Part shown: positions 2,945 to 63,012 of the stretch, one piece after another
Position numbering within the stretch: position 1 is the first letter of the stretch
How the letters are laid out: each line of letters begins with the position of its first letter
Source of the DNA: Candidatus Micrarchaeia archaeon
Lineage (GTDB): Archaea; Micrarchaeota; Micrarchaeia; CAILAH01
Direction of reading: 5' to 3'
Assembly (NCBI GenBank): GCA_038874595.1
Contig: JAVZCB010000005.1
Span: 17,594 to 81,593, forward strand
DNA length: 64,000 nt
Notes under the pieces: generated by a model
Told to the model about the DNA's origin: nothing
Seen by the model: the letters and a program-made list of their open reading frames with translations, nothing else
The model's database searches: none
Translations under genes and position numbers: made by a program

Positions 2945-3322
2945 CTATTTTTTCTTTGTAAAATCATAACCGCATTCAGTACAGAATTTTGCCGCTGGGT
3001 CATTTGACATATGGCATTCAGGACATACCCTAAACCGCGGTACTGCCTCCCCGCCAGCAGTTGCACTTGCCTTTACAGATATCTCCTCTTTATCCCGGTC
3101 AAAAGCAGCCCAGTATATTATTTGGGCAAGGCCGAGCACGCTTATCATTATTATAACATTAGTTGCAAGCGACATCAGCCCACCGCATGAGAAAGGGCCA
3201 GTATCCTCACAGTTTGGGTCTAACTGCCCAACAAGCGCTGGGATATACATATAGAATAATATAAAAAGTGCCACTCCTAGGAAGAGATTCAAAAGACCAT
3301 AAAACAGCATCTGCCGGCCCAT
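2945..3322 (-). CDS. Membrane protein with C-terminal zinc-ribbon
   Basis: TM helices followed by CPEC...CTEC zinc-ribbon and a lysine tail. Confidence 0.5.
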   Translation of the reverse strand: MGRQMLFYGLLNLFLGVALFILFYMYIPALVGQLDPNCEDTGPFSCGGLMSLATNVIIMISVLGLAQIIYWAAFDRDKEEISVKASATAGGEAVPRFRVCPECHMSNDPAAKFCTECGYDFTKKK

Positions 3323-3436
3323 AAGCTAAAATATGCGCAAATAAATAAAAGCATAAAATATAGAGAAGAGATAACACCAAATCCAATGACAACCAAAACT
3401 AAAAGAGCAAATCAAAAAACAAAAAATATAGTTTGC

Positions 3437-3877
3437 TTATTTCTTTGCAGTCAAGAGGTATATCGCACCGCCTATAAACCCAAGTATGAGGTTAGTTATA
3501 AGCGAAATGAAGAACATCATCGCAACACCAATTATGCCTCCTGCTGCTGTAATACCTATTCCCATAACATCCTGTTGTGTGCCTATAGCCGTGCCAATGT
3601 TAAACAATGCAAGAAGCATCAACACGACAGTGCCGACGATTGCTGCCGTAAATGCATAAACTGCATTCTGCACTGCCAAGCCGCCCCAGTCACCGGCACG
3701 AATCTTACCTATGCTGCCAACTAGGTACCCACCAATTATAACCAGTAGTGGTGCAAGGAAGCAGTTACATACTGTAACCATTACCCCCAGGAAAGGAATC
3801 AGGCTAAGAATGCCAGGTATAACGCCCACCAATATCCCGAGCGCAACCCCTAATATTATTGAAGTGATAAAACCCAT
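3437..3877 (-). CDS. Glycine-rich integral membrane protein
   Basis: 146 aa, highly hydrophobic, G-rich TM helices. Confidence 0.45.
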   Translation of the reverse strand: MGFITSIILGVALGILVGVIPGILSLIPFLGVMVTVCNCFLAPLLVIIGGYLVGSIGKIRAGDWGGLAVQNAVYAFTAAIVGTVVLMLLALFNIGTAIGTQQDVMGIGITAAGGIIGVAMMFFISLITNLILGFIGGAIYLLTAKK

Positions 3878-3912
3878 ATCTACACCTCTTAAAGTATTTG
3901 GGGCGCATCTTT

Positions 3913-4623
3913 TTAATCATTCCTGCAACAATCCCAAAAGGCATTTACAAAAATGAACATGCAATAAGATAGAAACACAAATGCAATAGGGGATACAAAC
4001 ACGAGCCCTATAGCTGATAACAGTGCCGTAACGGAAGATAACACAAGAAGGAGCACAATTATATAGAACATACCTTTAATTGCATTTCTACTTATGAAAC
4101 GGAATGCGTTCTTGAGTGCATTTAGTGGTGTTGCTCCGGCCTTAACCATATACACCGGGGAGAATAGCATTACCACAAAAATAAACATCGCCACTGTTGA
4201 GGCTGCAATAGCAACCACTCCCGGTCCTGAACCTGCTGATTGTCCCGCTGCACTGTATGAAAACAGGAAATAAACAACAAGAAAGAAAAATGCAAGCACA
4301 AGTGAATCGTAGATAACTCTATAAAAATCCCTCACTTGCACATTAAGCAGCTCATGGTAAAATAATATGATAAGGATTGATATTGGCAGAAAAACTGAGT
4401 ATGAGAACGCGCTGAAATCCGGAAATAGCACCAGTGCACCTGCATATAAAAACGCAACGATAAGGGTAAGCACGGTATATTTTAGCAAAAGCACTGTGTT
4501 TGGTGCAATCCCATCATACCCTTTCTTGAAAGAGATGAAAACCTTTTCTGTGCCTTCAGAAAATTCAGATTTCACTTTTGTAAAAAACCCTTCCTTATTG
4601 CCCTTGCCTGCCATCCATATCAC
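3913..4623 (-). CDS. Integral membrane protein
   Basis: 236 aa with multiple TM helices; start overlaps the stop of the upstream Mre11-like gene by 4 nt. Confidence 0.5.
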   Translation of the reverse strand: MIWMAGKGNKEGFFTKVKSEFSEGTEKVFISFKKGYDGIAPNTVLLLKYTVLTLIVAFLYAGALVLFPDFSAFSYSVFLPISILIILFYHELLNVQVRDFYRVIYDSLVLAFFFLVVYFLFSYSAAGQSAGSGPGVVAIAASTVAMFIFVVMLFSPVYMVKAGATPLNALKNAFRFISRNAIKGMFYIIVLLLVLSSVTALLSAIGLVFVSPIAFVFLSYCMFIFVNAFWDCCRND

Positions 4624-5780
4624 TTTGCGTTATTATTAGCAGATGCATTAATAAAATACTGCATAAGTGACCTGTCATCTGCTTCGCACATCATTTCAAA
4701 TGCCTCCTCAATATTGCTAATTGCAATACCGCGCCGTGCCGCTGCCTCTTTCAATATGGTGATTCCCCGCTCGCGTATGGAGGTATTTGACGCAGTAATC
4801 TGTTGAATATCTCCGAAATGCATTTCCACAGGTTCAGATTCTCTGGATATGTTTACAAAAAGATGACACTTATCAGAGTATTGGTCGCGCAATGCACTTA
4901 TCTCAGGTTGCACAAAAGATGCTATGCTCCCTGTTATGTCAATGCGGACGATTGGATGGCTTGTTAGGTCAAGCTGGGCAAGCTTCTCTGCAATTGCCTG
5001 TTTTAATGAAATTCCCTCTTTTGCTTCCACTGTAAGATAAATGAAAGGGCGGGTCTGGATTGTTATGTATGTATATCTGCGGGTATTCGTATCATATATG
5101 TAAAAGCCTTTTTCCCTTTCTTCACGGCGAACCTGTGTCAGCACCGTGCTTCCTGGGATTAAAAGCAGCTTCCCCGCCTTCTCAAGTGAGTAATTCTTAT
5201 GTAAATGGCCATCAACGTAAAGCTCAAACCCTGGAGGCAGGTCATCCATCGTAAGGCCACTCTCGACCTGTGGCATCAGCTCCTTGAGATTTTGGTGGAA
5301 CATGAATATGTTGAATGCGCCTTCAACTGGCTTAGGCGCAAGGCGCTCCAGTGCAGCCTTTGCATATTCCTCGGGGACGCCCGCCATACCATACACTGCA
5401 ACCTTTTCACCATCCTTCTCAAAAATAACGTGACGCCCGTGGCAGCTTTCTGCAAGCCCTGCTTTTGTAAGTATGTCAACAGGGTTTGCAAACCCGTGCG
5501 GCCTGCGCTCGTGCGTCCCGTGTATCACGATTGCTTTCTTGTGCAGTTTCCTGAATACTTCGATTGCGCGGGCGATTACCTCCTGCTTTGGCGTGCGCGA
5601 GTCAAACAGGTCTCCTGCAACAATGAGCAGGTCTGCCTCATCCTGCGCCTTAAGCAATGCCTGCTCAGCCTGGATAAAGCTATCATCATAGAAACGGTCA
5701 TAGCCAAAATGGAAATCCCCTAAAATTGCAACCTTCACGTAATGATTAGGGAAATTGCATATAAAACGATTGCTGTACAA
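4620..5780 (-). CDS. mre11: Mre11/SbcD-family metallophosphoesterase (putative DNA repair nuclease)
   Basis: Phosphoesterase motifs GDFHFG, AGDLFD, HGTHE, GHLH in Mre11 order; no rad50 adjacent. Confidence 0.6.
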   Translation of the reverse strand: MYSNRFICNFPNHYVKVAILGDFHFGYDRFYDDSFIQAEQALLKAQDEADLLIVAGDLFDSRTPKQEVIARAIEVFRKLHKKAIVIHGTHERRPHGFANPVDILTKAGLAESCHGRHVIFEKDGEKVAVYGMAGVPEEYAKAALERLAPKPVEGAFNIFMFHQNLKELMPQVESGLTMDDLPPGFELYVDGHLHKNYSLEKAGKLLLIPGSTVLTQVRREEREKGFYIYDTNTRRYTYITIQTRPFIYLTVEAKEGISLKQAIAEKLAQLDLTSHPIVRIDITGSIASFVQPEISALRDQYSDKCHLFVNISRESEPVEMHFGDIQQITASNTSIRERGITILKEAAARRGIAISNIEEAFEMMCEADDRSLMQYFINASANNNAK

Positions 5781-5835: not shown

Positions 5836-6078
5836 ATGTCAAAACAGGAGCATATGAATTACCTAATGGGAATTGGCATCTCCGATGTAGATGCTGATAC
5901 TGTATATGACTGCATTGCCACACGTGAGGTGTGCACGTGGACAAGTGTAGATGCTGTGCCTGATGATACAGAGCAGAAGGTAAATGAATACCTCAAGCCG
6001 TATGGCCTGGAAGTAAAGATTATCCCTGTGGGTGTAAGCGGCAGGTATATTTGGGAAGTCAAGAAAACACGGGCTTAA
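5836..6078 (+). CDS. Hypothetical protein (80 aa)
   Basis: ORF with ATG start in an intergenic-sized gap; no recognisable motif. Confidence 0.35.
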   Translation: MSKQEHMNYLMGIGISDVDADTVYDCIATREVCTWTSVDAVPDDTEQKVNEYLKPYGLEVKIIPVGVSGRYIWEVKKTRA

Positions 6079-7418: not shown

Positions 7419-8612
7419 TTATTCTTTATTCTCATCATCAACGTGGTAAAACTTCCTTTGTGGAAGTGCGCGCATGCAAGCCCTGAACTGCTCAAGCAGC
7501 TCTTCATCTACAATTTCTTTTTCCTTCCCGTCAATTATTGCCTGTTTCTTTGCAATGTATTCCTCTGAAGGGTATGGGGAGCTATACCATAAGCGGGCGT
7601 AATGTGCCGTATCCTCTGGCATCTTTGACGGGACTGAATTAAGCGCACCGAGCTCCGCGCCTGCAATGTCGTTTGGAAGTGCATTCTTGCGCGGGTAGAT
7701 GTGCACGTGCATCCTGTAATACTTGCTTGGGTGCACCGAGCTGTTCCTCAACTCACAGATAGGGGCATTATGAAATACCATATTGAAATTCATTACATAC
7801 CTGTAAAAATAAAGGAATGGGAATATGCCCCACGCAGGCTGTATTACAGAAATGCGGTCGTCCCGTACCTCAAGCTCAACAACAGATGATACTGGCTTCT
7901 TTGATATTATGATTATCTCGTCCGAGAATCTTGGAGCAAAAGGTGCACCTATATACACATCACTGTTTGAGAAAATCTTTCTTGAGCCATCCTGCTCTTC
8001 GTGTGCAACATACTGGTCATAAAGGTTGTTTCCTGTCAAAAAATAGTATTTCCTCGCAAGCTCAATCTCGTGCTTTATTTGTGAATATGGATGAATATAA
8101 TCGAGTATTGTAAACTGCGAATGTGGGTGCTGGCGGGATGCGCCGGCAAACGGCCCCCAATTTGTGAAAAACAAGTATGATTCAGCGCCCACACTGTATG
8201 CATAGTTTGCAAGGTCCCACATTGCCTCCATCATTGAGGTAAGGTCTTTTTGCTCGAGCTCTGATGGAAAAAGCCGATGCAATACTGGAGAGTCATCGTG
8301 ATTCTTCCTGAAAGGAGGATAGATTGTGACGAACTGGCCTATGCTCCAAGGGAAATAGTTTGGCACGCTTACCGCACCACCCTCGTGGTGCTTTCTTGGC
8401 TCTGGTGTATTGAGGTATGGATTGCAGAAATCGCAATTCTTCTCATACTGCACAAGCGTGCGCAAGGTATACATCCTTCGTTTTGCACGCTCTTCTGAAA
8501 TATACGCTGCAAAATCTGTTAAGGGGTCTATACGAAGAAACACCTTGGCAATCTTTTCGGCGCCGTTAAGATAGAGCTTCTGCTCGAGCACGCGCTCCTT
8601 AAGCTCCATCAT
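7419..8612 (-). CDS. GalT-like HIT-superfamily nucleotidyltransferase
   Basis: CDFCNP zinc-knuckle-like motif and HPHSQ (GalT HPHGQ-like) active-site motif. Confidence 0.5.
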   Translation of the reverse strand: MMELKERVLEQKLYLNGAEKIAKVFLRIDPLTDFAAYISEERAKRRMYTLRTLVQYEKNCDFCNPYLNTPEPRKHHEGGAVSVPNYFPWSIGQFVTIYPPFRKNHDDSPVLHRLFPSELEQKDLTSMMEAMWDLANYAYSVGAESYLFFTNWGPFAGASRQHPHSQFTILDYIHPYSQIKHEIELARKYYFLTGNNLYDQYVAHEEQDGSRKIFSNSDVYIGAPFAPRFSDEIIIISKKPVSSVVELEVRDDRISVIQPAWGIFPFLYFYRYVMNFNMVFHNAPICELRNSSVHPSKYYRMHVHIYPRKNALPNDIAGAELGALNSVPSKMPEDTAHYARLWYSSPYPSEEYIAKKQAIIDGKEKEIVDEELLEQFRACMRALPQRKFYHVDDENKE

Positions 8613-8645: not shown

Positions 8646-9011
8646 TTATCTCCTTCTCTTAACAATCTTCATCTTTGAAGGAGTAAGAAGTATCTTCTCG
8701 TTGTCAATCCTTGCAATATCACCACGGATTTCCTTTGCATACTCCTTAAGCTTATCGATAACTGCTGTGAGCACCTTTTCATTCTTGAGCATTGGCGTGA
8801 TGTTCAAGAGAATGACATTCCCGTTGTTCAGCTCGGTCTTTATTTCTGCAAGCACAGCGGTATTCTCAAGCGCAACCGGCTTAACGTATGCGACCGCTTC
8901 TTCCTCCTCGGTAGCAAGGTTCTCAAGGTCTTCAGAATCAAGATATTCCTGTAGATTCATGTCCTTTCCGCCCAGTCCGAGTGCGTCAGTAAACTTCTGC
9001 AGTATACCCAT
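8646..9011 (-). CDS. SepF-like (DUF552) putative cell division protein
   Basis: About 120 aa with acidic linker and C-terminal alpha/beta domain; track start at 9026 is TTG, the first ATG is at 9011. Confidence 0.45.
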   Translation of the reverse strand: MGILQKFTDALGLGGKDMNLQEYLDSEDLENLATEEEEAVAYVKPVALENTAVLAEIKTELNNGNVILLNITPMLKNEKVLTAVIDKLKEYAKEIRGDIARIDNEKILLTPSKMKIVKRRR

Positions 9012-9026
9012 TGTACCACCTGTCAA

Positions 9027-9240: not shown

Positions 9241-10425
9241 ATGATGCTGACATTTGAGGAGCTGATGGAAAGGAGCGGTGTGTTTAAGGATATGAATATG
9301 CTTTCACCGCATTACATCCCAGATGTCCTGCCTCACAGGGAAGAAGAAATTGAAACCATAATGAAAACCGTTGCGCCTGCTCTTAAGAATACAAAACCAA
9401 AAAACATGTTCCTCTATGGCAAGACAGGTACCGGCAAAACTTGCTCAACCCGCCTAGTGATGGAAAAGTTCAATGCAATGAATAAGAATGCCATCATGAG
9501 ATATATGAACTGCAGGATTTATGATTCAAGGTACAAAATCATATTCAAGATAGTTAATGATGTATGCAAAGAAGATGCAAAAATGGGGTACCCTCTCTCA
9601 AAGCTTTACGAATCAATGCTGGAATGGGTTGAGCAGAACAACACGCACACCATAATTGTGCTTGATGAGATTGATATGGTTGATGATGTCGACGACCTGG
9701 TGTACACCATGACAAGGATAAATGATGAGCTTGAGCGCGGTAGTGTCTCAATAATAGGCATTTCAAACCGCTTACATTTCAAAGAAAAACTCGACCCGCG
9801 CAGCAAGAGCGCATTGTACGAGAAGGAAATCGTGTTCAGGCCTTACAATGCAACACAGCTGTACGAGATACTCAAGCAGCGGGCGGAAGGTGCCTTCATA
9901 AAGGAAGGTGTTGAAGACGCCGCTATAAGGCTCGCAGCCGCAGTTGCTGCACGAGAAACTGGCGATGCGAGATATGCTGTAAAGCTCCTGCACAAGGCCG
10001 GTGTAATAGCAAATGAAAATGGGGATTTGAAAGTTACTGAAAAGCACGTGGAAAATGCAAGAAAGAGCGTCGATGAGGATCTGGTTGTTGAGGCAATCAC
10101 CACCCTGCCACAGCACGAGCAGATTGCGCTGTATGGGATATCTTTATTGCAATTAAAAGGCAGCGCATATAAGAGGCTCGGTGAGGACGGCCAGGACATA
10201 TTCATGTCCGGAGAGGTATATGAAAGTTATGTAAAAGCGTGCAAAAGCCTTTCCGTAACCCCAAGAAGTGCGCGATGGTTCTCTGAATACTTAAATGATT
10301 TGGATATGCTTGGGCTGATTGCACTGACATCTTCAGGAAAGGGGACGCGTGGGCAAACGCGGTTTATTAAGCTGGCGTATGACCCTGCAAGGATAAAGGC
10401 CATTGTTGAGAAAATATTCAGCTGA
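9241..10425 (+). CDS. orc1: Orc1/Cdc6 replication initiator
   Basis: Walker A GKTGTGKT, AAA+ architecture, C-terminal winged helix; ATG start confirmed. Confidence 0.9.
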   Translation: MMLTFEELMERSGVFKDMNMLSPHYIPDVLPHREEEIETIMKTVAPALKNTKPKNMFLYGKTGTGKTCSTRLVMEKFNAMNKNAIMRYMNCRIYDSRYKIIFKIVNDVCKEDAKMGYPLSKLYESMLEWVEQNNTHTIIVLDEIDMVDDVDDLVYTMTRINDELERGSVSIIGISNRLHFKEKLDPRSKSALYEKEIVFRPYNATQLYEILKQRAEGAFIKEGVEDAAIRLAAAVAARETGDARYAVKLLHKAGVIANENGDLKVTEKHVENARKSVDEDLVVEAITTLPQHEQIALYGISLLQLKGSAYKRLGEDGQDIFMSGEVYESYVKACKSLSVTPRSARWFSEYLNDLDMLGLIALTSSGKGTRGQTRFIKLAYDPARIKAIVEKIFS

Positions 10426-23512: not shown

Positions 23513-24397
23513 TTAACGTGCTGACGTATTTAGAAACTTGAGCGCTTTCAATGCGCTCTTTTCCTTATCTTTTATCTCAAGCATTAAATCAAATTCTATC
23601 CCTTTTGTATGAGAGAGAAACTCTGCAAAATCCTTGATATCTATTGAATTCGCGTGCGTACCTGGCCTTGCACCGCGCTGCTGCGAGCAGTAATCACACA
23701 TTAACGGGCCGTCCGGTTCGGCCCACGTGTTCTCAGCAAGTAGCATTGCGTTGCGCACACTTTCACCATTATTATTCAAGGAATGGTGAAAACTATCAAA
23801 CAGCACTGGCACACCCGTAATGCTGTTAAGCCGCAGGCAGTCCTTCAATGAGAACTGATGGTCATCATTCTCAACCACAACGCGCTTGCGCACTGAGGCG
23901 GGGAGCGCCCTGTACCTTTCAGCGAACCTCTCAATCGCAGCGGCCTTATCTCCATAAATACCACCAACGTGGATTTGGATTTTTGCATCTCTTCCCAGGC
24001 ACATCAAATCAAGAACCTTGGCGTGGTATTCTAGCTCTGCAATGCTTCTCTTAACCACATCATCATCAAGTGCATTAATCAGGACAAACTGGTCCGGGTG
24101 CATTGAAATGCGTATCCCATTTTCCTTTATGAGCTTGCCTATACTCCTGAACTTCCTGGCAAACTTGCCTGCCCAGTCATATGTGCAGATGGGGTGTGAT
24201 GCAAACGGGATTAGGTCTGAGGAAATCCTGAAGAAAAGTAGGCCGTTTTCTACGTTGAATTGGAGTATCTTCTCGAGGCAGGCCAGATTATTTGTTATGT
24301 GTGTTTCCATGTTCTGCTCTGAGTACGACGCAAGCCTGAACGTGGTGTTTGAAGTGCATCCAATACCTCTGTTTATGCACGGGTATCCAATCCGCAT
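23513..24397 (-). CDS. uvdE: UV damage endonuclease UvdE
   Basis: MRIGYPCIN N-terminus and TIM-barrel UVDE-like motifs. Confidence 0.8.
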   Translation of the reverse strand: MRIGYPCINRGIGCTSNTTFRLASYSEQNMETHITNNLACLEKILQFNVENGLLFFRISSDLIPFASHPICTYDWAGKFARKFRSIGKLIKENGIRISMHPDQFVLINALDDDVVKRSIAELEYHAKVLDLMCLGRDAKIQIHVGGIYGDKAAAIERFAERYRALPASVRKRVVVENDDHQFSLKDCLRLNSITGVPVLFDSFHHSLNNNGESVRNAMLLAENTWAEPDGPLMCDYCSQQRGARPGTHANSIDIKDFAEFLSHTKGIEFDLMLEIKDKEKSALKALKFLNTSAR

Positions 24398-44261: not shown

Positions 44262-46808
44262 TCATTTGCTGCTTGGGGACCAGTACTTTTTTGTACGTAT
44301 AAACTGCTCGCGGGCATGCAGCAAATCAAGCGCCAGTGAACGCTCATCCTTATGCATTCTGGAAAGTATGCGTGCGGCTGTTTCAGTGCCTACACCGTAG
44401 GTTGATAGCGCAAGCAAGGCACGCTTACCATATGATATATAAAGAGATGAGCGCCGCATCAGCTCATCTTTTGGGAGTACCCTGCGCTCATTTTCTGGTG
44501 AAGGTGCCAGCAAAACGCTTGAGCACTTTGGGCATTTCTTTGGAAGGGAAGACACGTGGCCATAAAATACATTATTACAATGCGCACATACAAACTTGAA
44601 CGTTGTAGGCATCTTATCAAGAAGCACCATTGCAGCACTTTCAGGTATCTCAGGAAACAACACCTGTGAGCCTGACATATAATCTAGCACTTCCAATGCA
44701 AGCGCATCAAGCTTCCGGAGCACCTCAAACTCAAACCCTCCCTTCGCAGAAAGGAAATTCTCAATAAAAGCCTGGGCAGTGCCACAGTCACAATACCTGT
44801 ACATAAAGTAATCGTGCGCTTCCCTGTATGCAAGCGAAGCTGCCAGCTTTGAAATGTAATGTGGAGGGTATCGGCCGTGCTTTTCAGACAGGCCATAGTA
44901 ATATGCCTCCTGAGAGAAAAGATATGAGAACGTTGTGTTCTTATGAAGTGTTGCGGAGATCTCGTTATATACGTTTGTACCGGAAGCTATTTGAGCAAGC
45001 GAGTCTTTTGATACTGGATACGGGAGCCGTATGAAGACTGCGTATGGGGATGATTTTGCAACTGCTGCTGCACCAAAGTATGCTGTGAGCCTGCCTGCAA
45101 GCGCAAGTGCAAGCGCATTGTTTGCGGTGCTTCCAAGAAATGTATATATTATGAGCATATCAGCGAATGCACAAACCTTTGGCTTGGGGCCTACCCCTAT
45201 CCTGGCCCTAACATCAGATGTTATCTCCCTCTTAACAGGTATCTGCTCGCCTTCCCAGTCAGGTATTGCCAACACGTATGAAGGCGAATGCGCAACCTCA
45301 ACAGACTCTTCCCCAATGCTTAAAACACGCCACGGTGTACCGCGGGTTATAAACACGTCACCTTCGTTAAGGGAAAGCACAAACCTTTCATCGAGGTATC
45401 CTATGACATGGCCGTTGAAACTCATCTTATACTTGATGCTTGAAGGGATTGTGCTGAGCCGTGTAAAGTAAAACGCGCGCGTGTGTAGCGTTTTCCTTGC
45501 CATCCTCCCATCATAAAAAATAATGCCGTTCCTATGGAGTTCTGAAAGTAATATCCTGAAATCATCAAAAGTTATCGTGGAATAAATGGGTGTGGCCGAA
45601 ACGAGCTTGTCATATAGCTGAGTGTCCTCAGCATGCCTGCACATAAGAAGCTCTCCTGCAACTGCATGGCCAAGCACACCTAAAGAAGGGTAGATGATGT
45701 CCTCATCTTCAAGATGATGGGATTTTGCGCGATCGCTTATTACCTCTGCTTCATTGAAGTCAAACTCGTTATGTGTAATTATTATCCCGCGCGGGGTTCC
45801 TGTAATCGCGTGCCCGCTCCTGCCGATGCGCTGCAATGCCTTCCTAACCTGCTTTGGTGAGCCAATATGGATTACAAGGTTAACATCACCTATATCTATG
45901 CCCAACTCAAGCGAGGAGGTACAAACCAGGCCTCGCACCCTGTTCTGCTTGAAATCATCCTCTATTTTCTCGCGTTCCTCCTTGGAGAGCGAGCCGTGGT
46001 GGACACCTATGCTCGCTCCTTTTGAGATCAGGTGGGAGCCTATGAGCTCCGCCATATATCGAGTATTCGTAAAAATTAATGTCTTGCATTCTTCCAAATT
46101 ATCGTTTATGACGCGGCACATAAAATCCAGGCGGGCATCTTCTGTTTTTCCTGTAGCCCGGATTACTTGTATCTCTAGGTTATTTGATGGTGTCTCCTGA
46201 ACAAGCAACCAATTATCACGAAATACAAACCTTGCAGCAGAATCGGGGCTCTTAAGTGTTGCACTTATTGCAACAGTCTGAAAGGATGCGATTGAACGCA
46301 AACGTGTAAACGCAAGCGCGAGCTGTGCACCGCGCTTGCTGCCTATGAGCTCATGCAGTTCATCTACTATCACATACCGCAGGTTGCGCAAGTATGTGCG
46401 GAATGATTCCGTGCAGAGCATTGCCTGCAGTGTTTCAGGAGTAGTGATGAATATATGTGAAGGGTGCCGTGACTGGAACGAGCGCTCTTTCTGTGGTGTA
46501 TCACCGTGCCTTACAGACACACGAAAGCCGAGCTCACGCGACCAGCTGCGCACACGCTCAACCATATCCCTGTTAAGTGAGCGGAGCGGCGTAATGTAAA
46601 GCAATGTTATCGGGCTTGGCGCATCTGGAAACTTGCTCATATTATCCAGAAAAGGGAGTAATGCTGCCTCTGTCTTACCGGAACCTGTCGGTGCGATAAT
46701 AAGCGTATCTTTTCCAGAGGCAATGACTGGGATTGCCTTTCTCTGGATAGGTGTGTATGAACCAAACCTGCCCCTGAACAGTATATCAAGCTTTGGTGAA
46801 AGCATCAA
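44262..46808 (-). CDS. lhr: Lhr-like superfamily 2 helicase
   Basis: Motif I APTGSGKT, DExH helicase core, large C-terminal extension. Confidence 0.8.
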   Translation of the reverse strand: MMLSPKLDILFRGRFGSYTPIQRKAIPVIASGKDTLIIAPTGSGKTEAALLPFLDNMSKFPDAPSPITLLYITPLRSLNRDMVERVRSWSRELGFRVSVRHGDTPQKERSFQSRHPSHIFITTPETLQAMLCTESFRTYLRNLRYVIVDELHELIGSKRGAQLALAFTRLRSIASFQTVAISATLKSPDSAARFVFRDNWLLVQETPSNNLEIQVIRATGKTEDARLDFMCRVINDNLEECKTLIFTNTRYMAELIGSHLISKGASIGVHHGSLSKEEREKIEDDFKQNRVRGLVCTSSLELGIDIGDVNLVIHIGSPKQVRKALQRIGRSGHAITGTPRGIIITHNEFDFNEAEVISDRAKSHHLEDEDIIYPSLGVLGHAVAGELLMCRHAEDTQLYDKLVSATPIYSTITFDDFRILLSELHRNGIIFYDGRMARKTLHTRAFYFTRLSTIPSSIKYKMSFNGHVIGYLDERFVLSLNEGDVFITRGTPWRVLSIGEESVEVAHSPSYVLAIPDWEGEQIPVKREITSDVRARIGVGPKPKVCAFADMLIIYTFLGSTANNALALALAGRLTAYFGAAAVAKSSPYAVFIRLPYPVSKDSLAQIASGTNVYNEISATLHKNTTFSYLFSQEAYYYGLSEKHGRYPPHYISKLAASLAYREAHDYFMYRYCDCGTAQAFIENFLSAKGGFEFEVLRKLDALALEVLDYMSGSQVLFPEIPESAAMVLLDKMPTTFKFVCAHCNNVFYGHVSSLPKKCPKCSSVLLAPSPENERRVLPKDELMRRSSLYISYGKRALLALSTYGVGTETAARILSRMHKDERSLALDLLHAREQFIRTKKYWSPSSK

Positions 46809-55978: not shown

Positions 55979-56695
55979 GTGAGATGTAATTCTGTGAGCG
56001 ATGAGATTGAATTTATAGATGTGGCTCTTCTTGAGAAGATTGATGCTGAGACGACTGTTGAGGGGTTTGGCTCAAAAATCAGCAGTACATTCTTTGAGGC
56101 GGCAAACCTGCTGGGCACCCTAAAAATAAAGGGCCTTATCGAGATACATTCCGCGATTGGGAACAGCCCGGTGCTCCTCACCGAGAAAGGAAAATTGCTG
56201 CTGAAAGATTTTGAGGCCAACGCGGAGGCAGAGATTGGCAAGATTGACCTGGCAGTGCTTGGGAGTGTGCGCGGTGGGCTGCGCGATCCAAAGAAAGTCG
56301 AGGCAGCGTTAAACATCAACGGGAAGGATATCGCATATTCCATATACAGGCTTGCAAAGAAAGGATATCTTGAATACAAAGTTAGGAATGGCAGTGTTGA
56401 GCTTGTTCTTACAACACGCGGGTTTGAGGAGGAGAATCCGACCGTAAAGGAGCATGCAAACAGGGTAATTGCAAAAACCGAGCTTGCAAGGCCTGTTGTA
56501 AAAGCTCCTGGGGAGGTACGAAACAAGACTGCTGAGGAACTGGCTGCCGAGGAGTTTGTTGTTGAAAGTGGGGATGCTAGAAAGGAGAGTATGGCACTGT
56601 CAAAAATGATGTATTATATTGATAGGTATAAGTGGTATGGTGTGCTTGCACTTATAGCTGCAGCTGCGGTGCTCCTTCTTGTTTTCTGGAAGTGA
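55979..56695 (+). CDS. Hypothetical membrane-anchored protein with two winged-helix-like repeats
   Basis: GTG start; two internally similar about 70-aa segments; C-terminal TM helix. Confidence 0.4.
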   Translation: MRCNSVSDEIEFIDVALLEKIDAETTVEGFGSKISSTFFEAANLLGTLKIKGLIEIHSAIGNSPVLLTEKGKLLLKDFEANAEAEIGKIDLAVLGSVRGGLRDPKKVEAALNINGKDIAYSIYRLAKKGYLEYKVRNGSVELVLTTRGFEEENPTVKEHANRVIAKTELARPVVKAPGEVRNKTAEELAAEEFVVESGDARKESMALSKMMYYIDRYKWYGVLALIAAAAVLLLVFWK

Positions 56696-57314
56696 TGCTA
56701 TGGGGATGGTTGATGACCTCGGGCTGTTTTCAAAAGCAGGCATAACACTCCCTAGATATGAATTTGTGCCTATTGGGCATAGGCCTGTGTTATTCAGTGC
56801 TGAAAAGTTTGTAATCAAAGCTGTTGGGAAAAACATTGTACACAAGACAGATATTGGTGCAATAAAAATGAACGTGGATAAGGAGAGTGTTGAGCTTGAG
56901 ATTAGGCGGATGCGCAACAAGCTTGAAAAGCTCAGGCCAGAGGGGTTTCTGATACAGGAGCAGGTGCCAAAAGGTATTGAGGTTATAATTGGTGCAAAGC
57001 GGGATTTGCAGTTCGGTGATGTTGTGCTGTTTGGAGTTGGTGGGGTTTATGTTGAGTTATATAAGGACGTGTCTGTAAGGCTATGCCCCGTATCTGACAC
57101 GGATGCACTTGAGATGATTAATGAGACAAAAGCAGGGCACTTGCTTGAAGGGTTCCGGGGAAGGCCGTCGATTGATAAGTGTATGGTTGCTGGTATAATA
57201 AAGAAGGTGTGCGCGGTGATGCACCGCAACCCGGACATAAAGGAGATTGACCTGAACCCGGTCGTGCTTTACCCGACCAGCTACTCTGCCGTCGATGTGA
57301 GAGTGATAAGATGA
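56679..57314 (+). CDS. NDP-forming acetyl-CoA synthetase (ACD), beta subunit (ATP-grasp)
   Basis: ATP-grasp motifs KAVGKNIVHKTDIGAI and IEVIIGAKRD; stop overlaps the alpha-subunit ATG (ATGA); likely true start ATG near 56700. Confidence 0.7.
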   Translation: MFSGSDAMGMVDDLGLFSKAGITLPRYEFVPIGHRPVLFSAEKFVIKAVGKNIVHKTDIGAIKMNVDKESVELEIRRMRNKLEKLRPEGFLIQEQVPKGIEVIIGAKRDLQFGDVVLFGVGGVYVELYKDVSVRLCPVSDTDALEMINETKAGHLLEGFRGRPSIDKCMVAGIIKKVCAVMHRNPDIKEIDLNPVVLYPTSYSAVDVRVIR

Positions 57315-58777
57315 ATAAAAATAAGCGCGCACCGGCAGATAAGGAAAACAGTATGGTGCGGGATAACCAAAACCTGAACATGCGTGCAGTAATTGAGCCG
57401 AGCAGTATTGTAGTTATTGGTGCATCAAGAAACCCATCAAAGGTTGGGTATGCCGTGCTCAAGAACCTTATCACGAGTGGGTTTAATGGCTGGCTTTATG
57501 CCGTAAATCCGAACGCTGATAACATACTTGGTGTGAGATGTTACAAGAGCATCAAGGAACTCCCTCAGAAAGTTGACTGTGCAATAATAGCTGTGCCTGC
57601 AGAAAACGTAAATGAGATAATCGAGGAATGCGGCAGAAAGGGGGTTCGTGGAGCAATTGTGATTTCCGGCGGGTTCAAGGAAGTTGGGGAAGTGAAGCGT
57701 GAGTTGGAGCTCACAAAAATATGCAGAAAATATGGCATTGCAATGATAGGGCCGAACTGTCTCGGGATAGTAAATAGGAAAAAGCACGTTGACAGCATAT
57801 TCCTCCCAACATATAAGATGAAGAGGCCGCAGCTCGGGAAGATTAGTTTCGTGACACAGAGCGGTGCCGTCGGCTCAACAATACTCGACCTTATAGGGGA
57901 GTCAAACATAGGTGTCTCAAAATTCATATCGTACGGTAATGCTGCTGTCATTGATGAGAGTGATTTGCTGCGCTATCTGCGTGAGGATGCTGACACATCG
58001 GTTGTGGTTATGTATATCGAAGGTGTAAAGGACGGCAGGAAGTTTTATAGGGAGCTTAAGGAAACATGCGCAGTCAAGCCGGTTGTTGTCTTAAAGGCAG
58101 GAAAAGGTGCGTTGGCTGCAGGTGCGGCAAAATCACATACTGGTGCGCTTGCAGGTGATTACAAGATTTTCCAGGCAATGCTGAAACAAGCGGGTGCGGT
58201 TGAGGCGACAAACCTGCCGGAGTTATTCAACTTATCAAAGATATTCCTACAGCCATTGCCCAAAGGGGATAGGATGTTCGTGCTCACGAACGGTGGTGGC
58301 GATGGTGTGCTCGCAGTGGATGCAATCGAAAGGAACGGGTTGAAACTGGCACAACTGAGCGGGAAAATGCGTGCAAAACTGCGGAGGATTCTGCCAAAGC
58401 ATGTTGTTGTTGGCAACCCGTTTGACCTAACAGGCGATGCGGACAGCACGAGGTACAGGACCGTGCTTGAAGAGGCAGTAAAAGAGGAGGGCATCGATGC
58501 AATCATTGCAATAACACTGTTTCAAACGGCCGGCCTTGGCTCTGAGGTCGTCAATGAGATTATAAGCGCCGATATCAAAACGGATAAAACGATTGTATCT
58601 GTTGCAACTGGTGGTGAGTATACGCGCCTCCTCCTCAGCATAATAGAATCTTCCGGAATACCTGCGTATGGGTCGCCAAGCGAAGCTGTTGATTCAATCG
58701 CAAAGGCGTTATGGTATTATAAGAAGAGGGGTGTGGGCCGCGGGACAGTACAAAGCGCTGGAGACGGCAGCGTGTGA
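57311..58777 (+). CDS. NDP-forming acetyl-CoA synthetase (ACD), alpha subunit
   Basis: CoA-binding VIGASRNPSKVGY and catalytic-His loop GKGALAAGAAKSHTGALAG. Confidence 0.8.
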   Translation: MNKNKRAPADKENSMVRDNQNLNMRAVIEPSSIVVIGASRNPSKVGYAVLKNLITSGFNGWLYAVNPNADNILGVRCYKSIKELPQKVDCAIIAVPAENVNEIIEECGRKGVRGAIVISGGFKEVGEVKRELELTKICRKYGIAMIGPNCLGIVNRKKHVDSIFLPTYKMKRPQLGKISFVTQSGAVGSTILDLIGESNIGVSKFISYGNAAVIDESDLLRYLREDADTSVVVMYIEGVKDGRKFYRELKETCAVKPVVVLKAGKGALAAGAAKSHTGALAGDYKIFQAMLKQAGAVEATNLPELFNLSKIFLQPLPKGDRMFVLTNGGGDGVLAVDAIERNGLKLAQLSGKMRAKLRRILPKHVVVGNPFDLTGDADSTRYRTVLEEAVKEEGIDAIIAITLFQTAGLGSEVVNEIISADIKTDKTIVSVATGGEYTRLLLSIIESSGIPAYGSPSEAVDSIAKALWYYKKRGVGRGTVQSAGDGSV

Positions 58778-59700
58778 GCAGTATGATAGCCCAGCTAAAC
58801 AGTATTGTCCTGCTTTTTCTCCTTTATTTAAACATCAAGCTCATACGGAAATATATTGATACCGATGATGCAAATTATGTCATTGCATTCGCTGTACTTC
58901 TCTTCTTGTTCTTCAACCTATGGTTGGGAGCGTATGCGGAAATACTCGGCAGGTTCCAGCAGCAGTTCACAATTGCTATGAACGCGTTGCCAATGATAAT
59001 TGTAATTGTGCTTGTGTGGCTTGAAGGAAAAAGGAAAAAGGAAGAGCGGGAAAGAAGGAAAACGCGCGAGTTCTTCTCAAAGTATGTTTCAGAGAAGATT
59101 GTAGACACTCTCCTCAAGGAAAAACAACTTGAGCTTGGCGGTGAGAAGCATCAAGTAACTGTTCTTTTCACGGATGTGCGCGGGTTTACTGCAATGTCTG
59201 AGAGGCTTGACCCGAAGCAGGTCGTTGAAGTGCTTAACGGGCACTTTGATATAATCAATGAGGAAATATTCAGAGAAAATGGTACCGTGCTCAAGTATAT
59301 CGGAGACTCTGCAATGGCTGTGTTTAATGCCCCTATCTTGCAGAAAGACCATGCTGAAAAGGCTGTGCGGGCGTGCATAGCCGTGCAAAAAAGGATGAAA
59401 GAATACTCATCTACAGTTAAAGGTAAAATGAATATTGATTTTGCAATTGGTATAGGGATAAATAGCGGTGAAGCGGTTGTCGGCAATATCGGCTCACACA
59501 AGTATATGGATTATACGGTCATAGGAGATGCCGTGAACACGGCGTCGCGGTTAAATGGCATTGCAAAAGCTGGTGAGATAGTCGTGAGTGAGAGCACATA
59601 CGAGCTCATTAAAGACAAGTTCAGGTTTAGCAAACCAGAGGAGGTTCCAGTTAAAGGGAAGGTGCTTCCAGTCAAGGTTTATAGGGTGCTTTATGAATAG
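58774..59700 (+). CDS. Membrane-anchored class III nucleotidyl (adenylyl) cyclase
   Basis: N-terminal TM helices; CHD domain with metal-binding Asp in FTDVRGFT and IGD, substrate Lys in KYIGD, transition-state GDAVNTASRL; start overlaps the ACD alpha stop. Confidence 0.75.
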   Translation: MSSMIAQLNSIVLLFLLYLNIKLIRKYIDTDDANYVIAFAVLLFLFFNLWLGAYAEILGRFQQQFTIAMNALPMIIVIVLVWLEGKRKKEERERRKTREFFSKYVSEKIVDTLLKEKQLELGGEKHQVTVLFTDVRGFTAMSERLDPKQVVEVLNGHFDIINEEIFRENGTVLKYIGDSAMAVFNAPILQKDHAEKAVRACIAVQKRMKEYSSTVKGKMNIDFAIGIGINSGEAVVGNIGSHKYMDYTVIGDAVNTASRLNGIAKAGEIVVSESTYELIKDKFRFSKPEEVPVKGKVLPVKVYRVLYE

Positions 59701-62895: not shown

Positions 62896-63012
62896 TGGAC
62901 TCGCGGGGATTTGAACCCCGAGCCTCCACCTTATCCTTCTGCTTTTTGGAAGAGAAAGGGGTCTCCCTGCCTCTCTTGCGAAGGTGGCGTCATGCCGTTA
63001 GACCACGAGCCC
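62896..63012 (-). tRNA. tRNA-Ala (anticodon CGC) with about 45-nt intron
   Basis: Hand-folded cloverleaf: acceptor GGGCUCG/CGAGUCC with G3:U70, T-arm CGGGG-UUCAAAU-CCCCG, anticodon loop UUCGCA[intron]A, discriminator A; T-run follows the 3' end. Confidence 0.8.

Follow-up and report, generated by a model that had tools for sequence, protein, structure and literature searches.

A divergent Mre11 orthologue followed by small membrane-protein genes in a Micrarchaeota genome

Among the described systems, the closest to the gene treated here is archaeal Mre11, represented by the structures of the P. furiosus (Pfu; PDB entries 1ii7 and 4hd0) and M. jannaschii (Mj; 3av0 and 4tug) proteins, in which a nuclease domain is followed by a cap, a flexible linker and C-terminal helices. 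Bacterial SbcD belongs to the same superfamily and has the nuclease and cap architecture as well. The MPE nuclease (6nvo), a partner of Lhr-core in bacteria, is a stand-alone metallophosphoesterase of about 215 amino acids (aa) that has no Rad50 and neither a capping nor a C-terminal domain. The subject of this report is a Mre11-like gene on the minus strand of a 64,000-nucleotide stretch of genomic DNA (hereafter the window), together with three genes for small membrane proteins, mA, mB and mC, which lie downstream of it on the same strand. The source organism is a tiny symbiotic archaeon of the Micrarchaeota, and the window matches contig JAWAEQ010000005.1 of a Candidatus Micrarchaeia metagenome assembly, GCA_038891275.1; the archaeal, DPANN-type character of the genome is seen in its archaeal RNase P RNA and its Orc1/Cdc6, SepF, RFC and aIF2-type genes. 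Sequence, fold and the order of the domains mark the protein as an Mre11 in which a single metal ligand has changed. It is the divergent, single-copy Mre11 orthologue of the Micrarchaeota (arCOG00397), and the gene, of a kind already known, has two minor features not reported before: a Thr in motif III and, in one subclade, an operon of mre11 with mA. The most likely reading of the locus, and one that we consider probable, is that an ordinary Mre11 is co-transcribed with membrane genes as a result of gene packing in a compact genome, and that the membrane proteins do not replace Rad50.

The assignment to Mre11 is carried by sequence profiles and by the predicted fold. The only Pfam matches are the general families Metallophos and Metallophos_2. 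The three best NCBIfam matches are the archaeal Mre11 equivalogs Mre11_Sulfo, Mre11_Pyroc and Mre11_Halo (86.5, 72.2 and 48.7 bits, with cut-offs of 500, 600 and 550), followed by TIGR00583 mre11 (33.9 bits, cut-off 435), all ahead of sbcd, YfcE and PdeM. These models are lineage-specific, and the scores under their cut-offs exclude the equivalogs of those lineages, not membership in the Mre11 family. A phmmer search against the PDB finds P. furiosus Mre11 first (E 6e-16, across the nuclease and capping domains) and then the M. jannaschii, human and fungal proteins; the HMMER alignment extends through the cap, including its RPFI motif. A profile made from 44 family members matches the Pfu, human, Chaetomium, Mj and S. 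pombe Mre11 proteins with E values of 1e-29 to 1e-17. Sequence identity to the solved Mre11 proteins is 21-23%.

The AlphaFold2 model (pLDDT 89.3) contains the parts of archaeal Mre11 in the same order: a nuclease domain, a beta/alpha capping domain (residues ~232-297), a low-confidence, presumably disordered linker at about residues 301-312 and four C-terminal helices. When the model was compared with the PDB by Foldseek, the top 45 matches were all Mre11, with E values of 1e-19 to 1e-15 for structures of nuclease plus cap. Alignments to the Pfu and Mj structures of nuclease plus cap cover 326-347 columns with a TM score of 0.70-0.76 on target length, and they lengthen from about 345 to 393-400 columns for chains that include the Rad50-binding region (3av0_A, 5dny). 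The best profile and fold matches are thus those to archaeal Mre11. An earlier note on this DNA, made from the letters alone, had taken the gene for an Mre11-family phosphoesterase, and the Pfam, NCBIfam and PDB matches agree with it. The same note had called the gene atypical for canonical Mre11. That view is not supported, given the grouping of the protein with archaeal and eukaryal Mre11 in both profile and fold comparisons and its retained cap and C-terminal helices.

Two other identities were considered and rejected. Some annotation pipelines label Micrarchaeota proteins 'SbcCD nuclease subunit', but SbcD is matched much more weakly than Mre11, with a profile E value of about 6e-4 against 1e-29 and a Foldseek E value of 4e-14 against 2e-19. 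The MPE nuclease gives a marginal match (E 0.009 over about 50 residues), and an operon pairing of the Lhr-MPE type was rejected as well, the Lhr gene being 39 kb away and the two never adjacent or co-oriented. The Lhr-type DEAD/DEAH helicase of the window carries WH_Lhr and DEAD_assoc domains. About a dozen further Micrarchaeota loci (L052, L063, L069-L071, L075, L076, L079, L081, L083, L086 and L089 in our numbering) have an Lhr-like open reading frame (ORF) of 900-930 aa, which is on the strand opposite to the mre11-like gene and 4-8 kb away from it.

The family is large and nearly confined to one phylum. The protein database holds 543 relatives, and the best 120 of these are all of the same type; of the 120, nearly all that have an organism name are labelled Micrarchaeota. 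When one genome per species was counted, a relative was found in at least 501 GTDB species genomes, almost all labelled Micrarchaeota and a few Iainarchaeum or Marsarchaeota. For comparison of the gene neighbourhoods, 94 Micrarchaeota loci from about 85 distinct genomes were used.

The active site is that of Mre11 except at one position. The seven metal ligands and the catalytic His of Pfu Mre11 are D8, H10, D49, N84, H85, H173, H206 and H208, and the motif residues of the window protein are D8, H10, D43, T75, H76, H148, H178 and H180. Besides motifs I, II, IV, V and VI, the protein has the catalytic His of motif III, but that motif reads G-T-H-E in place of the canonical G-N-H-D, with Thr75 as the equivalent of Pfu N84. 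The earlier statement that all phosphoesterase motifs are there holds for six of the seven metal ligands and for the catalytic His76; it fails for the Asn of motif III. We know of no characterised Mre11 with Thr in this place. Among 88 family members, motif III is GTHE in 81, GTHD in six and GNHE in one, so that GTH(E/D) accounts for 87/88. The lone GNHE protein (L053, 957-2123) has the lowest identity to the query of all members (33.5%), and since only this most divergent member keeps the Asn, the Thr looks to have been derived early within the Micrarchaeota lineage and then fixed.

One consequence could be that the family is a phosphoesterase derived from Mre11 whose chemistry or role has shifted through the Asn-to-Thr exchange, for example to a single metal, to another metal or substrate preference or to a mainly structural role, and which is no longer a canonical nuclease. 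The near-fixation of a derived GTH(E/D), with the Thr invariant in the alignment of 44 sequences, fits such a shift, as does the distance of the best equivalog score from its cut-off (86 bits against 500). On the other hand, D8, H10, D43, H76, H148, H178 and H180 are equally invariant in that alignment, and an inactive scaffold would not be expected to conserve them; a Thr could still place a metal-bound water; and the fold and the order of the domains are those of Mre11. The equivalog models, moreover, were made for Sulfolobales, Pyrococcus and Halobacteria, and a fast-evolving DPANN lineage is expected to score low against them. A shift of this kind is considered quite unlikely. Because all other catalytic residues are invariant, the enzyme is probably active, with an altered second metal site.

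In the archaeal systems of known type mre11 classically stands in an operon with rad50 or with herA and nurA; the window gene, unlike these, does not. No Rad50, HerA or NurA domain was found in the scanned window ORFs of at least 220 aa, nor in the few kb of the 71-kb contig beyond either end of the window, which agrees with the earlier claim that none of the three genes is nearby. The 903-aa gene just past the start of the window was considered as a hidden Rad50 and rejected, being a repetitive, propeller-like surface protein; the far end of the contig encodes RIO1 and TFIIE. The same holds across the phylum. A scan of 90 loci, with flanks of up to 10 kb, found no ORF of at least 500 aa with an N-terminal Walker A motif except a Lon-type ATPase, and no ORF with the GxNGxGKS motif of Rad50/SMC heads except one small ABC ATPase. 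Separation of mre11 from rad50, with no Rad50-like gene inside 10 kb in any of the 94 loci, is the norm of the phylum and not a peculiarity of this locus.

Published gene tables nevertheless list both partners. The cultured Micrarchaeon Mia14 has one arCOG00397 protein (SbcD/Mre11) and two of arCOG00368 (SbcC/Rad50-type ATPase), together with three HerA proteins and no NurA (Golyshina et al. 2017, PMC5498576 Suppl. Data 4). By our own tally of the tab-separated rows of a second table, Mre11 is annotated in 27 of 29 Micrarchaeota metagenome-assembled genomes (MAGs) and a Rad50 ATPase in 17 of the 29, and the nearly complete ARMAN-2 genome has two Rad50 ATPases (Chen et al. 2018, PMC5864196 Table S8). 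Given that most Micrarchaeota in these tables have a listed Rad50-type ATPase, the genome studied here probably also encodes rad50 at another locus. A search of the full-text literature on Micrarchaeota or DPANN archaea for Rad50 and Mre11 found no dedicated analysis. After the linker, at the position expected of a Rad50-binding domain, helices at residues 308-371 show the family pattern SVRExGxxILK...EELFxLL (in the window protein, SIRERGITILK...IEEAFEMM), and the pattern is retained in the subclade whose members carry the membrane genes.

The start of mre11 requires a choice. The longest ORF covers 4620-5780 and begins at TTG 5780, but the NCBI and Logan gene calls both begin at GTG 5738 and give a 100% identical protein of 372 aa. 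Upstream of that GTG, at a distance of about 25 nt, is a TATA-like box, TTTTATAT. The public calls and the geometry of the box favour GTG 5738 as most likely the true start, with TTG 5780 falling inside the promoter region and the longer ORF probably over-extended. The distance of about 25 nt implies a leaderless mRNA, and by archaeal promoter geometry TTTTATAT is likely the promoter of a leaderless mre11-mA-mB transcript. A scan for promoters and terminators of the bacterial type returned no terminator and promoter-like sites at chance level, its bacterial models being uninformative for an archaeon. The coordinates of these elements and of the other features of the window are given in Table 1.

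Table 1. Location of mre11, the downstream membrane genes and other features in the window (TM, transmembrane helices).
Feature	Positions	Strand	Description	Basis
mre11	4620-5738	minus	372 aa from GTG 5738	Pfam Metallophos; profile and fold matches
TATA-like box	5759-5766	minus	upstream of GTG 5738	read from sequence
mA	3913-4623	minus	6 TM; 236 aa (GTG 4623) or 233 aa (ATG 4614)	ORF
mB	3437-3877	minus	Gly-rich, about 4 TM, 146 aa	ORF
mB-mC spacer	3323-3436	minus	114 nt, AT-rich	read from sequence
mC	2945-3322	minus	125 aa, 2 TM and C-terminal zinc ribbon	Pfam Zn_Ribbon_1 (E 6e-6), DZR
DUF4870 gene	2546-2926	plus	MamF/MmsF-like membrane protein	
80-aa protein	5836-6078	plus	divergent from mre11	
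397-aa protein	7419-8612	minus	beside SepF	
SepF	8646-9026	minus		
Orc1/Cdc6	9241-10425	plus		
UvdE	23513-24397	minus	UV-damage endonuclease	
Lhr-type helicase	44262-46808	minus		
Acetyl-CoA synthetase genes	55979-59700	plus	ADP-forming; two subunits (ATP-grasp; CoA-binding/ligase), with the 308-aa cyclase-domain protein	
tRNA	62896-63012	minus	117 nt	Rfam

As the earlier note had described, mre11 is followed by three small membrane proteins on the same strand, one of them with a zinc ribbon, and its stop codon overlaps the start of the first. The overlap with the GTG of mA is 4 nt (AAGTGA), and the alternative ATG lies 5 nt past the stop. The protein mA has an N-terminal cytoplasmic helix and the conserved motifs LILLFHHE and PIYMVKAGA. 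Its predicted fold is of the CysZ/choline-transporter-like (CTL) type, the helical bundle common to CysZ and CTL transporters (SLC44, yeast PNS1). The resemblance is one of fold: no sequence similarity is detectable (8-11% identity), and mA falls far short of the CTL proteins in size. In sequence it does not belong to Pfam EI24/CysZ, Choline_transpo, DUF975 or similar families; no consistent Pfam match was found in 10 orthologues at E values up to 5, and no NCBIfam match. The protein looks like a small solute transporter and not like a DNA-handling partner.

The second protein, mB, has two invariant Asp residues. Its gene begins 35 nt past mA, with GAGGTG just ahead of the ATG, and is absent from three loci of the subclade described below (L009, L016 and L094). 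The third protein, mC, has a cytoplasmic ribbon (CPEC...CTEC, of the form CPxC...CxxC), and the orthologue alignment shows two invariant Cys in the loop between its transmembrane (TM) helices. It is present in every subclade locus that reaches far enough. Between mB and mC lies the AT-rich spacer, which ranges from 33 to 505 nt in orthologous loci. In the window, two T6 runs, an archaeal oligo-T termination signal, stand right after the mB stop, and a TATA-like TTTTATTTATTT is found about 20-30 nt ahead of the mC ATG. Because of these runs, this element and the length of the spacer, mC is probably a transcription unit with its own promoter. The earlier proposal that all the membrane genes are co-transcribed with mre11 is therefore plausible for mA and mB, where the junctions are -4 or +5 nt and 35 nt with GAGGTG, and doubtful for mC.

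Beyond the zinc ribbon of mC, no Pfam, NCBIfam or PADLOC match was found for mA, mB or mC. A defence system was considered and rejected, PADLOC giving only a marginal PDC-S10 match for the nuclease and none for the membrane proteins. A DUF4870 membrane-protein gene converges on mC, a position kept in L004 and L005, so that four small membrane-protein genes lie in a short stretch.

The membrane genes were traced in all loci with hidden Markov models made from the three membrane proteins of four genomes. Wherever Mre11 shares at least 49% identity with the query (L001-L005, L009 and L011-L016), mA immediately follows mre11; it is present in no locus of lower identity. These 12 non-redundant loci form an exclusive clade in a neighbour-joining tree of the 88 family members. 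A second trait defines the same subclade: its members lack an insertion of 20-28 residues between motifs II and III (alignment columns ~101-132, consensus around GKKW.AK...GRE) that other Micrarchaeota members carry. Of 10 species, five have mre11 and mA overlapping in ATGA; in the remaining five the two genes are no more than 23 nt apart. Outside the subclade the downstream gene varies (a transglutaminase-like protein, convergent genes, small soluble ORFs) and never encodes a 6-TM protein; about 78 of the 94 loci have no membrane gene downstream of mre11. Searches from the side of mA gave a matching picture. Only seven relatives were found among 1.84 billion representative proteins by exhaustive HMMER search, and three by a word-indexed search; in JGI metagenomes only four mA loci were found, with mre11 immediately upstream in all. 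The cassette is a single, recent, clade-specific acquisition that is still attached to mre11. The earlier note had held that its view would fall if the protein clustered with canonical Mre11 and rad50 lay elsewhere in the genome, with no conserved linkage to the membrane genes; the clustering is found and rad50 is probably elsewhere, but the linkage is conserved, though only in the small subclade of 12 loci.

This linkage could mean that Mre11 and the membrane cassette form a functional module in the subclade. Such a module might be a membrane-held nuclease that processes incoming or host-derived DNA, or, in a symbiont unable to make nucleotides, it might link the breakdown of DNA to the traffic of solutes or nucleotides. 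It would account for a linkage that is strict in both directions, for the close junction in all 10 species, and for the restriction of the mA family to the clade, from which it follows that the cassette and the linkage arose together; the cytoplasmic zinc ribbon of mC could bind nucleic acid or protein. Nevertheless, the synteny of the subclade extends well past these genes on both sides, to SepF, SpoU-MTS, TruD, DUF763 and RadA, and the linkage may reflect recent common ancestry. Abutting or overlapping same-strand neighbours are also common in the window (12 of 34 pairs, unrelated genes included), and in L010 it is an upstream ThiI gene that overlaps mre11. Since about a third of same-strand neighbours abut or overlap, the overlap alone is weak evidence of a common function. 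In addition, mA resembles transporters of small solutes and not DNA channels, the Mre11 of the subclade has an unchanged C-terminus, where a partner is presumed to bind, mB is dispensable, and mC probably has its own promoter. A functional module is therefore regarded as unlikely. A fuller version, in which Mre11 has been recruited to a membrane module with mA, mB and mC that couples the processing of DNA ends or the degradation of DNA to the cell envelope, acting for instance on host-derived DNA, and in which the phylum-wide Asn-to-Thr exchange may separately alter the metal chemistry, appears improbable.

At the opposite extreme, the arrangement might have no functional meaning at all, the membrane ORFs being expressed separately from internal promoters. 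TATA-like strings are many in this AT-rich genome, and mC does have upstream signals of its own. However, mre11 and mA, with a junction of -4 or +5 nt, are too close for a promoter to fit between them, and the Shine-Dalgarno-like GAGGTG of mB is typical of genes internal to an operon. This explanation is given very little credence.

The reading that we prefer remains an ordinary Mre11 in a tightly packed operon. Mre11 would, most likely, dimerise and process DNA ends together with a Rad50 ATPase encoded elsewhere and bound through the conserved C-terminal helices. It would be translated from one leaderless mRNA with mA and mB, and mC would probably be read from its own promoter. The co-transcription would be a product of tight packing in a very compact genome, not the sign of a machine that joins nuclease and membrane. 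As for the earlier suggestion that the membrane proteins are there instead of rad50, the Rad50-type ATPases listed for Mia14 and for the majority of the MAGs, the general absence of linkage between mre11 and rad50 in the phylum, and the transporter-like nature of mA all speak against it, and the membrane proteins are not expected to stand in for Rad50.

Several observations weigh against the preferred reading. The residue replaced by Thr is the Asn that binds the second metal, and canonical two-metal chemistry cannot be assumed. Over a divergence of Mre11 down to 49% identity, the mre11/mA junction has remained within -4 to +23 nt, which is more than packing alone predicts, and no mA homologue was found outside the mre11 context in the genome and metagenome collections. 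The C-terminal helices, which the earlier note had singled out as the region to inspect for Rad50 binding, are conserved and stand at the expected position, but a profile of the C-terminal region gave no significant match in the PDB to a solved Rad50-binding domain. Rad50 was not found for the window genome or for the subclade, where the view is limited to the 71-kb contig and the flanks of the loci, and 12 of the 29 published Micrarchaeota MAGs have no annotated Rad50 (PMC5864196 Table S8).

Some further features of the window may be recorded. The 80-aa and the 397-aa proteins have no Pfam match, and both positions are conserved in L001 and L004. SepF and Orc1/Cdc6, 3.5 kb from mre11, are divergent over a 214-nt AT-rich spacer that could be a replication origin; a search for repeats in it found weak repeats of 10-17 nt and no clear ORB elements. 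The genes of the two acetyl-CoA synthetase subunits run via 4-nt overlaps into that of a 308-aa protein with an adenylate/guanylate cyclase catalytic domain, and in the distant Micrarchaeota loci L006-L008 and L010 the acetyl-CoA synthetase genes adjoin the mre11-like gene. The tRNA is matched by Rfam without an ARAGORN call and probably has an intron; tRNA introns are common in DPANN archaea. Since UvdE is accompanied elsewhere in the window by RNase HII, a RecJ/GAN-like DHH protein and RFC subunits, this small genome keeps a fair set of DNA-repair genes.

For annotation, the result means that the name Mre11 can be given to the 'metallophosphoesterase family protein' of Micrarchaeota MAGs, and that the lack of an adjacent rad50 is not to be read as loss of the Mre11-Rad50 system. 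The Thr-for-Asn exchange across nearly the whole phylum amounts to a natural experiment on the active site of Mre11. A functional coupling to the membrane genes, if there is one, would make this the first Mre11 with a tie to the membrane and would bear on the handling of DNA in host-dependent DPANN archaea.

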